Assembly (NCBI RefSeq): GCF_046105845.1
Contig: NZ_CP151004.1
Reading direction: 5' to 3' (one strand)
DNA: 64,000 nucleotides
DNA from: Escherichia coli
GTDB lineage: Bacteria; Pseudomonadota; Gammaproteobacteria; Enterobacterales; Enterobacteriaceae
Within the stretch, counting starts at the first letter, position 1, and each line of letters begins with the position of its first letter. Shown here piece after piece: positions 2,627 to 51,686 of the stretch. The position numbers and the translations under genes are program-made. A model generated the notes under the pieces. The model was not told where the DNA came from. It saw only the letters and a program-made list of their open reading frames with translations, and ran no database searches.

Positions 2627-3406
2627 ATGCAAACCATCACCATCGCCCCACCCAAGCGCAGCTGGTTCTCGCTTCTGAGCTGGGCCATTGTACTCGCCGT
2701 GCTGGTCGTCTCGTGGCAGGGCGCGGAAATGGCCCCGCTCACGCTGATTAAAGACGGCGGCAACATGGCGACGTTCGCTGCCGACTTCTTCCCGCCCGAT
2801 TTCAGCCAGTGGCAGGATTACCTCACCGAAATGGCCGTCACGCTGCAAATCGCCGTCTGGGGCACCGCGCTGGCGGTGGTTCTCTCCATCCCCTTCGGCC
2901 TGATGAGCGCCGAAAACCTGGTGCCGTGGTGGGTTTACCAGCCCGTTCGCCGCCTGATGGACGCCTGCCGCGCCATTAACGAGATGGTCTTCGCCATGCT
3001 GTTCGTGGTCGCCGTCGGTCTCGGTCCGTTCGCTGGCGTACTGGCGCTGTTTATCCACACCACCGGCGTGCTCTCCAAACTGCTTTCCGAAGCGGTAGAA
3101 GCAATTGAACCCGGTCCGGTGGAAGGTATTCGCGCCACTGGTGCCAACAAGCTCGAAGAGATCCTCTACGGCGTGCTGCCGCAGGTGATGCCGCTGCTGA
3201 TCTCCTACTCCCTCTATCGCTTCGAATCCAACGTCCGTTCGGCCACCGTTGTTGGCATGGTCGGCGCTGGCGGGATCGGCGTCACCCTGTGGGAAGCGAT
3301 TCGCGGTTTCCAGTTCCAGCAAACCTGCGCCCTGATGGTGCTGATTATCGTCACGGTCAGCCTGCTGGATTTCCTCTCTCAACGGTTGCGTAAGCACTTT
3401 ATCTGA
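2627..3406 (+). CDS. phnE: Phosphonate ABC transporter permease PhnE (intact reading frame)
   Basis: ORF track 2564..3406; start re-assigned to ATG 2627 ([12 protein letters not shown]...) because the upstream extension lies in REP sequence; continuous to stop. Confidence 0.9.
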
Positions 3407-6250: not shown

Positions 6251-7088
6251 TCTGAGCGGCTACAACTTTGCTTACCTCGACGAGCAGACCAAACGCATGA
6301 TCCGCCGCGCCATCTTAAAAGCGGTAGCGATCCCCGGTTATCAGGTACCTTTTGGCGGGCGCGAGATGCCGATGCCGTACGGCTGGGGAACTGGTGGTAT
6401 CCAGCTTACCGCCAGCGTGATTGGCGAAAGCGACGTGTTGAAGGTGATTGACCAGGGCGCGGATGACACCACCAACGCCGTGTCGATTCGCAACTTCTTT
6501 AAGCGCGTGACCGGGGTAAACACCACTGAACGTACGGACGATGCGACGCTTATCCAGACGCGCCACCGCATCCCCGAAACGCCGCTGACCGAAGATCAGA
6601 TCATTATTTTCCAGGTGCCGATCCCGGAACCGCTGCGCTTTATCGAGCCGCGCGAAACGGAGACCCGCACTATGCACGCGCTGGAGGAGTACGGCGTGAT
6701 GCAGGTGAAACTGTATGAAGATATCGCCCGCTTCGGTCATATCGCCACCACTTATGCCTATCCGGTGAAGGTGAACGGGCGCTACGTGATGGACCCGTCG
6801 CCGATCCCGAAATTCGATAACCCGAAAATGAACATGATGCCCGCCCTGCAGCTGTTCGGCGCAGGGCGCGAGAAGCGCATCTATGCGGTGCCGCCGTTTA
6901 CCCGCGTGGAAAGTCTCGATTTCGACGATCACCCGTTCACCGTTCAGCAGTGGGATGAGCCATGCGCCATCTGCGGATCGACCCACAGCTATCTCGACGA
7001 AGTGGTGCTGGATGACGCCGGAAACCGCATGTTTGTCTGCTCCGATACCGATTATTGCCGCCAACAGAGCGAGGCAAAAAACCAATGA
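6243..7088 (+). CDS. phnJ: C-P lyase core subunit PhnJ
   Basis: ORF track 6054..7088; start re-assigned to ATG 6243 (MANLSGYNFAYLDEQ...), 281 aa; C-terminal Cys cluster. Confidence 0.9.
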   Translation: MANLSGYNFAYLDEQTKRMIRRAILKAVAIPGYQVPFGGREMPMPYGWGTGGIQLTASVIGESDVLKVIDQGADDTTNAVSIRNFFKRVTGVNTTERTDDATLIQTRHRIPETPLTEDQIIIFQVPIPEPLRFIEPRETETRTMHALEEYGVMQVKLYEDIARFGHIATTYAYPVKVNGRYVMDPSPIPKFDNPKMNMMPALQLFGAGREKRIYAVPPFTRVESLDFDDHPFTVQQWDEPCAICGSTHSYLDEVVLDDAGNRMFVCSDTDYCRQQSEAKNQ

Positions 7089-7843
7089 ATCAACCGTTAC
7101 TTTCGGTCAATAACCTGACCCACCTTTACGCGCCGGGCAAAGGCTTTAGCGATGTCTCTTTTGATTTATGGCCGGGGGAAGTGCTGGGCATCGTCGGGGA
7201 ATCCGGCTCCGGGAAGACCACGCTGCTGAAATCAATTTCCGCGCGTCTGACGCCGCAGCAAGGGGAGATTCACTATGAAAACCGTTCCCTCTATGGCATG
7301 AGCGAGGCCGACCGCCGTCGCCTGCTGCGCACCGAATGGGGCGTGGTGCATCAGCATCCACTCGACGGCCTGCGCCGCCAGGTGTCGGCAGGCGGCAATA
7401 TCGGCGAGCGGCTGATGGCGACCGGGGCGCGTCATTACGGCGATATTCGCGCCACCGCGCAGAAGTGGCTGGAAGAGGTGGAGATTCCCGCTAACCGGAT
7501 CGACGACCTGCCAACCACCTTTTCCGGCGGCATGCAGCAGCGTTTGCAGATTGCCCGCAACCTGGTGACGCATCCGAAGCTGGTGTTTATGGACGAACCA
7601 ACCGGCGGGCTGGATGTATCCGTACAGGCGCGCCTGCTCGACCTGCTGCGCGGCCTGGTGGTGGAGCTGAACCTGGCGGTAGTGATTGTTACCCACGATC
7701 TGGGCGTCGCCCGCCTGCTGGCGGACCGTTTGCTGGTGATGAAACAGGGGCAAGTGGTGGAGAGTGGGTTAACCGACCGCGTGCTCGACGACCCGCACCA
7801 CCCGTACACCCAGTTGCTGGTGTCATCGGTTTTGCAGAATTGA
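7085..7843 (+). CDS. phnK: C-P lyase accessory ATP-binding protein PhnK
   Basis: ORF track 7055..7843; ATG 7085 ([11 protein letters not shown]...), 252 aa; Walker [10 protein letters not shown]. Confidence 0.9.
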
Positions 7844-7847
7844 GCCA

Positions 7848-7934
7848 GTGCCGGATACGGCGTAAACGCCTTATCCGGCCGACAAATGCGCTCCCCGTAG
7901 GTCGGATAAGACGCGTCAGCGTCGCATCCGACAC
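7848..7934. repeat. BIME: two REP elements between phnK and phnL
   Basis: gtgccggatacggcgtaaacgccttatccggc and gtcggataagacgcgtcagcgtcgcatccgac palindromic units. Confidence 0.7.
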
Positions 7935-7953
7935 CCGAACCACGAGGCGAAAA

Positions 7954-8634
7954 ATGATTAACGTACAAAACGTCAGTAAAACCTTCATCCTGCACCAGCA
8001 AAACGGCGTGCGCCTGCCCGTCTTACAACGTGCCTCGCTCACCGTCAACGCAGGCGAATGCGTGGTGCTTCACGGCCACTCCGGCAGCGGAAAATCAACC
8101 CTGCTGCGCTCGCTGTACGCCAACTATCTGCCCGATGAAGGTCAAATCCAGATCAAACACGGTGATGAGTGGGTAGACCTGATCACCGCGCCAGCCCGCA
8201 AAGTGGTGGAGATCCGCAAAACCACCATCGGCTGGGTGAGCCAGTTTCTGCGCGTTATCCCGCGTATTTCGGCACTGGAAGTGGTGATGCAGCCGCTGCT
8301 CGATACCGGCGTACCGCGTGAAGCCTGCGCCGCTAAAGCCGCCCGATTACTGACGCGCCTGAACGTGCCTGAACGCCTGTGGCACCTGGCACCATCGACC
8401 TTCTCCGGCGGCGAACAGCAGCGCGTCAACATCGCCCGTGGCTTTATCGTCGACTATCCGATTCTGCTGCTGGATGAACCCACCGCCTCGCTGGACGCTA
8501 AAAACAGCGCCGCGGTGGTGGAACTAATTCGCGAAGCCAAAGCCCGCGGCGCGGCCATCGTCGGTATCTTCCATGACGAAGCCGTACGCAATGACGTCGC
8601 CGACCGCCTGCACCCGATGGGAGCCTCTTCATGA
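7954..8634 (+). CDS. phnL: C-P lyase accessory ATP-binding protein PhnL
   Basis: ORF track 7840..8634; ATG 7954 ([11 protein letters not shown]...), 226 aa; the upstream extension is REP sequence; Walker [10 protein letters not shown]. Confidence 0.9.
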
Positions 8635-51456: not shown

Positions 51457-51650
51457 GCGATGGTTCTCCAGGTTTACGGGCAGGTGGTTAAACCACAATA
51501 AACCGGAAGAAGGCGAAGATCGAGTGGATGTTCAGGGGCGAACGGCAATTAGCAACAGAGTGAGACTCATGACAAACGTACATCCGCCAGAGGCACGGCC
51601 TTCACAAGAGCATGAAAGAATATCAACTTATTGAATTGGTAGGATTTTAT

Positions 51651-51686
51651 TGGCCGGATAAGGCATTCACGCCGCATCCGGCACAA
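51651..51686. repeat. REP element downstream of alr
   Basis: gccggataaggcattcacgccgcatccggc palindromic unit. Confidence 0.7.

Follow-up and report, generated by a model that had tools for sequence, protein, structure and literature searches.

A pair of Z2 and Y REP units between phnK and phnL in the phn operon of Escherichia coli

The genes phnK and phnL of the Escherichia coli phn operon are separated by two facing REP units, one of type Z2 and one of type Y, which together are best described, on the basis of their sequence, as a single BIME-2-type unit. This pair can be read directly in the junction, while its likely consequences for the phn mRNA, through the hairpins that the two units would form, are derived by analogy with better-studied REPs; we give this joint explanation a probability of about 0.8. 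The element itself is of an ordinary, already known kind, i.e., the commonest palindromic repeat of E. coli, and its main features are collected in Table 1, where positions refer to the window (the whole stretch of 64,000 nucleotides that was analysed).

Table 1. Features of the phnK–phnL junction (positions in the window).
Feature	Positions	Strand	Details
phnK (C-P lyase ABC ATPase)	7085–7843	+	TIGR02323, 410.7 bits (cutoff 302.85); translation starts MNQPLL
phnK stop codon, TGA	7841–7843	+	From the sequence
Spurious in-frame 38-codon extension of phnL	7840–7953	+	TTG at 7840, overlapping the phnK stop; reads through the BIME; Arg-rich
Untranslated phnK–phnL gap	7844–7953		110 nt, between the phnK TGA and the phnL ATG (7954–7956)
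Spacer GCCAGT	7844–7849	+	6 nt, from the phnK stop codon to the foot of the first REP stem; from sequence and fold
Z2-type REP, GCCGGATACGGCGTAAACGCCTTATCCGGCCGAC	7850–7883	-	34 nt; on the + strand, an inverted REP (tail to head)
Linker, AAATGCGCTCCCC	7884–7896	+	13 nt; short, head-to-head, S-type length
Y-type REP, GTAGGTCGGATAAGACGCGTCAGCGTCGCATCCGAC	7897–7932	+	36 nt; 0 mismatches to the degenerate Y/Z pattern
Tail and phnL ribosome-binding region	7933–7953	+	ACCCGAACCAC, then GAGG (7944–7947), then CGAAAA
phnL (C-P lyase ABC ATPase)	7954–8634	+	TIGR02324, 370.5 bits; 226 aa; ATG at 7954
phnM	start 8631		Follows phnL

The K-12 RefSeq annotation maps onto the window with an offset of -298 and agrees with ours on both phnK and phnL; the gap is equivalent to 4317896–4318005 of MG1655. 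The original prediction, made from the letters alone, had an untranslated gap of 110 nt at this junction, which is exactly what the stop codon ending at 7843 and the ATG at 7954 delimit, and it had placed the repeat at 7848–7934, within 2 nt of the actual element at both ends. Its description of the operon as otherwise tightly coupled holds only in part: from phnF to phnP, all junctions of the K-12 annotation overlap or leave a gap of at most 1 nt, but phnC–phnD (24 nt), phnD–phnE (105 nt) and phnE–phnF (20 nt) do not follow this rule. The 401-nt stretch around the BIME is 100% identical to the corresponding DNA of E. coli strain WP4-S18-ESBL-07 and 94–99% identical to that of thousands of genomes.

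That the gap holds a pair of REPs, as had been proposed, is borne out by matches to the REP consensus, by the palindromes, by the copy number and by a comparison with the array REP325. The Z2 unit departs at 2 positions from the Z-type REP consensus, and neither REP pattern was met by chance (0.00 matches in 100 dinucleotide-preserving shuffles of the window). Both units are imperfect palindromes, with arms that are 93% (7850–7883) and 86% (7897–7932) complementary, and the lengths of 34 and 36 nt fall within the 30–40 nt expected of a REP. When used alone as a query, the 110-nt gap finds at least 40 matches in each genome across 5,409 E. coli records, which is the dispersed, high-copy behaviour of REPs, and the whole element is extragenic, beginning 6 nt 3' of the phnK stop, again a typical REP location. 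Finally, the two units face each other head to head (CGAC-13 nt-GTAG), which is the arrangement of a BIME. Far from the phn operon, the minus strand carries a further Z-type REP (51649–51682), which departs from the consensus at 3 positions.

The most informative comparison is with REP325, a 12-unit array of alternating Z2 and Y units located between yjdM and yjdN, just upstream of the phn operon. Both elements are extragenic, lie between tandem genes and are transcribed with them, and both associate Z2 and Y units head to head across a short linker. Read as its reverse complement, the Z2 unit has 2 differences from those of REP325 (GTAGGCCGGATAAGGCGTTTACGCCGCATCCGGC), one of them in the head, which is GTCG instead of GTAG in the present strain (CGAC on the + strand, where K-12 and 8 other aligned strains have CTAC). 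The Y unit has an intact GTAG head (7897–7900) at the expected place, 5' of the stem foot, the same inner stem as the Y units of REP325 and their AA/GC internal mismatch, while its outer stem is a compensated variant, GTCGGAT/ATCCGAC replacing GCCTGAT/ATCAGGC; a 37-nt sequence at this unit has exact copies (100% identity) at other places in E. coli genomes. The Y unit possesses both features that have been described as needed for binding by TnpA-REP, the REP-associated transposase, namely the GTAG head and the AA/GC mismatch of the stem, the latter having been mutated in that study (PMC3333891). In contrast to REP325, there is a single unit instead of 12, the linker has 13 nt instead of 17 and another sequence, and the order of Z2 and Y relative to transcription is reversed. 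Thus, compared unit by unit with REP325, the composition (Z2 + Y) is that of a BIME-2, but the tandem repetition characteristic of multi-copy BIME-2 elements is absent, only one pair being found here and in all 10 aligned strains.

The linker AAATGCGCTCCCC resembles the S linker of REP325 only loosely. Since the 39-mer formed by head, linker and head has a median of 4 matches per E. coli genome, we regard it as a family variant of the linker. The same recurrence rules out another idea, suggested by the letters AATGCGC...TCCCC in the alternative allele described below, namely that the linker is an ancestral phn spacer caught between two independent REP insertions. A BIME-1 (Z1 + Y, with a long L linker carrying an IHF site) was likewise rejected, the linker having only 13 nt and no AT-rich L motif. 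As for RNA families, the sole Rfam match is RF02564 (naRNA4), a two-hairpin RNA from REP325 and the sole model that Rfam has for a REP pair, which aligns end to end with 7849–7933 (model positions 1–77 of 77, E = 2e-5); with scores of 39.0 and 40.9 bits against a gathering threshold of 59.5, the element does not belong to this family by the Rfam criterion. The role of naRNA4 in nucleoid compaction is itself contested (bioRxiv 10.64898/2026.03.23.713779).

This BIME would be the second of the operon, the first having been predicted between phnD and phnE. Two REPs are indeed found there, at 2525–2560 and 2577–2610, in a gap of 105 nt (2522–2626): the former is a Y-variant with a GTAA head instead of GTAG, and the latter is of Z-type. 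The pair is listed as REP324 of MG1655 in a supplementary table of a 2026 preprint. The two elements share the operon, a Y-variant paired with a Z unit and a gap of about 105 nt, and the Y-variant of REP324 (GTAAGTCGGATAAGACGC...GCGTCGCATCCGAC) is nearly that of 7897–7932. They differ in that the units of REP324 are tail to tail, separated by a linker of 16 nt, with the first unit only 3 nt after the phnD stop. The gene that follows, phnE (2627–3406), is an intact ORF of 259 codons here, while K-12 records mark it as frameshifted or as a pseudogene; because phnE is intact, the present operon should function in phosphonate uptake.

Knowledge of REPs and BIMEs goes back to the 1980s, and about 355 REP elements are annotated in MG1655. 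The phnK–phnL BIME is very probably already catalogued, perhaps as REP323 if one goes by the numbering (REP324 being the phnD–phnE pair). A literature search for REP323 returned nothing relevant, another search found, within the library consulted, no paper naming phnK, phnL and REP together, and the copy of RefSeq record NC_000913.3 that was consulted lists no REP features, REP325 included.

At the RNA level, the region 7835–7960 is predicted to fold into two hairpins with an energy of -49.1 kcal/mol, against -33.4 ± 3.5 in shuffled sequences (z = -4.5; 0 of 200 shuffles as good). The Z2 stem pairs 7850–7857 with 7872–7879 and 7859–7862 with 7867–7870 on either side of a C7858/T7871 mismatch, while the Y stem pairs 7901–7907 with 7926–7932 and 7910–7914 with 7919–7923 on either side of an internal loop, AA (7908–7909)/GC (7924–7925). 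Each stem therefore has 12 pairs and the mismatch or bulge expected of a REP. All 24 pairs are retained in 10 strains, in which the covariation check found just two changes, both one-sided (G-U to A-U and G-C to G-U). Over these ten non-independent strains, 7 of the 110 gap positions are variable, compared with 26 of the 95 third-codon positions in the 287 nt of coding flanks (Fisher p = 5e-5), which makes the gap about 4-fold less variable. Three of the seven variable sites are in the 6-nt spacer, and the others fall in a loop, in the head tetranucleotide and at two stem positions that are still paired; the region 7933–7953 does not vary at all and is unpaired in the centroid fold. In this small and non-independent sample, the low variability is consistent with a constraint on the hairpins; such a constraint, or else the homogenisation of REP copies, could explain it without any function at phn.

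The occurrence of the element across strains, which the original prediction had designated as the way to check it, was surveyed with the two coding flanks alone as a query. Both flanks were found in 5,387 of 5,426 complete E. coli genomes, and about 90% of these have the BIME. More precisely, the BIME-form query is covered to 80% or more in 4,841 genomes, a count that appears to include two genomes (among them strain RMDEC465, which covers 96%) with a 167-nt gap holding three REPs and an AT-rich 34-nt linker. The other 546 genomes (about 10%) have a 176-nt gap with a different G/C-rich palindromic repeat (CCCCTCACCCC...GGGAGAGGGTTAGGGTGAGGGG), so that the allele counts sum exactly to the 5,387 genomes with both flanks. 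No empty junction was found among the latter, the flanks matching as two separated pieces in 39 of the 39 complete rows sampled, and a synthetic query representing an empty junction never matched in one piece at the 40 evenly sampled ranks. The junction is therefore polymorphic in content within E. coli. The alternative 176-nt repeat is itself dispersed (median of 17 places per genome) and is probably BoxC, judging from its motif and from a copy number compatible with the 22–32 copies published.

Two assemblies show unusual forms of the junction. In strain RMDEC465, the gap (445–611 of the locus) is chimeric: a Z2 unit of the E. coli type and a Y-type unit are followed by an AT-rich linker of 34 nt, which resembles that of BIME-1, and by a REP identical to the one of Citrobacter werkmanii. 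PhnL begins there with MIRVEN, unlike the E. coli type, and these features point to a recombination breakpoint within the repeat or close to it. In a contig labelled Pseudocitrobacter faecalis DSM 27453, PhnK and PhnL are 99% identical to those of E. coli and the gap reaches 298 nt (1203–1500), with four tandem BoxC-like units, which is a case of copy-number variation of the alternative allele and suggests either E. coli-like DNA in the assembly or a recent transfer.

Beyond E. coli, a PhnL scan with one genome per species yielded 80 loci, from which the junction gaps of 78 other species were obtained. The phnK–phnL gap has a median of 26 nt, with overlaps in 5 of the 78 species, while the medians are -1 for phnJ–phnK and -4 for phnL–phnM in the same species, so that, of these three junctions, phnK–phnL is usually the only one without an overlap. 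Bare junctions of 7–9 nt, which follow a pattern of stop, GAGG and ATG, occur in Leclercia (TAA-GAGGCGAAC-ATG), Citrobacter (TAA-GAGGCCAAC-ATG in Citrobacter sp. FP75) and Enterobacter (TGA-GGCCAAC-ATG in one of them), GAGGCGAAC-ATG coming directly after the phnK stop in both Leclercia and Citrobacter sp. FP75. The GAGGCGAAAA-ATG of E. coli is the same ribosome-binding stretch as in these bare relatives, which places the repeat between the stop codon and the Shine-Dalgarno sequence; since the bare junction consists of the stop, GAGGCGAAC and the ATG, about 100 of the 110 nt can be ascribed to the repeat.

The same slot, between the phnK stop and the phnL Shine-Dalgarno sequence, is taken by repeats of other sequence families elsewhere, i.e., by the BoxC-type repeat and by genus-specific REPs. 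The latter come as a single unit in Kluyvera, enterobacterium RIT691 and E. cloacae, as two head-to-head units in Citrobacter werkmanii and Pluralibacter, and as three units in Enterobacter asburiae; they are also found in Cedecea. In two Pseudomonas species, pairs of Pseudomonas-type REPs (GTAGGAGCGGCTTCAGCCGCGAA...) lie at the junction (1397–1491 and 1376–1491 of their loci), while in the other Pseudomonas of the set the gap ranges from -4 to 38 nt. Among the alphaproteobacteria, Pelagibacterium and two Devosia species have gaps of 197–253 nt (loci 1291–1500, 1248–1500 and 1304–1500) with very long palindromes of CCCCTCCCC/GGGGAGGGG motifs, which resemble the BoxC-like motif of E. coli and fold at -99 to -128 kcal/mol. 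The simplest reading of this accumulation is that repeats gather at phnK–phnL because, alone among the three junctions, this one can take an insertion that leaves coding sequences and overlaps intact.

How could the BIME affect the expression of the operon? It would be transcribed within the polycistronic phnC–P mRNA and form two stable hairpins. By analogy with other REPs, these would block 3'-to-5' exonucleases and partly attenuate read-through, so that phnC–K would be favoured over phnL–P. Such effects have been documented for intercistronic REPs of the malE–malF type, which act as mRNA stabilisers and partial terminators and to which the phnK–phnL element may be likened, even though the effects are context-dependent elsewhere. 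REPs are reported to protect upstream mRNA and to act as partial Rho-dependent terminators, REP325 doing both; furthermore, tandem gene pairs with a REP in between show a higher ratio of upstream to downstream expression, although some REPs placed after a reporter gene have no effect (bioRxiv 10.64898/2026.03.23.713779). Regarding translation, the work of Liang, Rudd and Deutscher (2015), according to the summary in PMC12306157, found that REPs reduce that of the upstream gene only at distances under 16 nt from its stop; since the first stem lies 6 nt past the phnK stop, termination at phnK might be hindered and the output of PhnK lowered, with ribosome stalling and tmRNA tagging of PhnK as the expected signs. 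As for phnL, it would be translated from its own GAGG rather than by coupling to phnK, the site being unpaired in the centroid fold. Altogether, we would expect a modest bias towards the upstream genes, combined with an independent initiation of phnL, and the differential expression of the accessory ATPases that had been proposed is plausible on the same analogy.

Published data set bounds on these effects. RNA-seq coverage falls along the phn operon under phosphate starvation, a condition in which the full 14-gene transcript is observed, and a phnGHIJK sub-transcript was detected in another, non-inducing condition (PMC3734233). Since phosphate starvation yields a single transcript of all 14 genes, attenuation would be partial at most. 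Moreover, PhnK and PhnL attach to the core complex of the lyase in the form of a double dimer (PMC9947105), hence there is no evident need for an unequal dosage of the two proteins. Likewise, since about 10% of E. coli genomes carry another repeat and several genera carry none, this specific element must be dispensable for C-P lyase function. Immediately past the BIME, the beginning of phnL (7930–8050) is C-rich and G-poor (GC skew of -0.23 to -0.32), a composition that is associated with Rho loading sites and may be relevant to a partial Rho-dependent attenuation, although this region is translated.

At the other extreme, the BIME could be a selfish or neutral filler of a permissive junction that changes neither phn expression nor growth on phosphonates to any measurable extent. 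This possibility, which we deem unlikely without being negligible, would agree with the polymorphism of the junction in E. coli (BIME, BoxC-like repeat or three REPs), with its bare form in several related genera, with the inertness of some REPs behind reporter genes and with the full-length transcript obtained under induction. However, it sits uneasily with the observation that all 5,387 E. coli genomes fall into three repeat-bearing forms, as well as with the reduced variability of the gap and the conservation of every stem pair, and two hairpins of this stability, so close to a stop, would hardly go unnoticed by ribosomes and exonucleases. Part of this evidence also bears on a stronger proposal, in which the junction would be not just permissive but selected to carry a stable hairpin, the balance between PhnK and PhnL–P being tuned by ribosome stalling or by segmental mRNA stability. 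Several observations point in that direction: in every E. coli genome with both flanks, the junction holds a repeat of one of three unrelated architectures, genus-specific REPs are present at this place in six or more further genera (Pseudomonas among them), and the BIME varies less than nearby synonymous sites. If true, this would mean that a conserved regulatory need is met by interchangeable repeats; we nevertheless find it doubtful, and less likely than the permissive junction.

A role at the DNA level, rather than the mRNA effects that we favour, appears improbable. According to this hypothesis, the BIME would be a site of gyrase binding and cleavage, easing the supercoiling of a long and strongly induced operon, with the Y unit as the preferred cut site. 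The Z2 + Y composition of the element is compatible with it, given that gyrase cleavage sites are over-represented in BIME-2 elements, with Y preferred over Z2, but cleavage is limited to some BIME-2 elements, chiefly arrays with several copies, as at sucC–sucB (PMC6379681), and the phnK–phnL junction holds a single unit. Besides, the existence of the BoxC-like allele and of bare junctions implies that such a role is not required.

Still less credible is an operon boundary, i.e., a gap with an intrinsic terminator for phnC–K and/or a promoter for phnL–P that would define two transcription units. While the hairpins are G+C-rich and the phnGHIJK sub-transcript of the non-inducing condition could be taken as a sign of such a boundary, a search for sigma-70-like promoters in 7400–8400 found none, and the gap holds no intrinsic terminator, the REP hairpins being followed by CGACAAAT and ACCCGAAC, without any T-run. 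The sole terminator-like match (7806–7823) is inside phnK and within the expectation from shuffles, and transcription as a single 14-gene unit under phosphate starvation (PMC3734233) speaks against a boundary as well.

One last feature of the junction concerns annotation. The mechanical ORF at 7840–8634 starts with a TTG and has 264 aa, compared with 226 aa for the actual PhnL, and the original prediction rightly attributed this N-terminal extension to the repeat. That the extension might nonetheless be coding can be dismissed, despite a frame open from the TTG at 7840, because the TIGR02324 model (positions 1–218 aligned to residues 1–218 of PhnL), the orthologues of about 80 other species and the RefSeq annotation of all the strains fetched start at the Met of 7954 or its equivalent, because the extension is a translated REP whose frame is closed by a stop 16 codons upstream of the phnL ATG in the BoxC-like allele, because other genera have only 7–9 nt at the junction, and because a GAGG precedes the ATG at 7954 by 6 nt. 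On the opposite strand, RefSeq (PGAP) records for strain TH9F11 a 91-aa "hypothetical protein" across the BIME (96–371 of the record, minus strand, equivalent to about 7798–8073 of the window), a label also found in two further matches; this is very likely a spurious call made by the repeat.

The practical value of these results thus lies in annotation, since the BIME wrongly lengthens the phnL ORF by 38 codons and gives rise, in some RefSeq genomes, to a spurious protein on the minus strand. Even though their value as a discovery is low, the phnK–phnL junction, with its bare forms, its genus-specific REPs and its three alleles in E. coli, amounts to a small and clean natural experiment on the role of intercistronic REPs, in an operon that can be induced at will by phosphate starvation.
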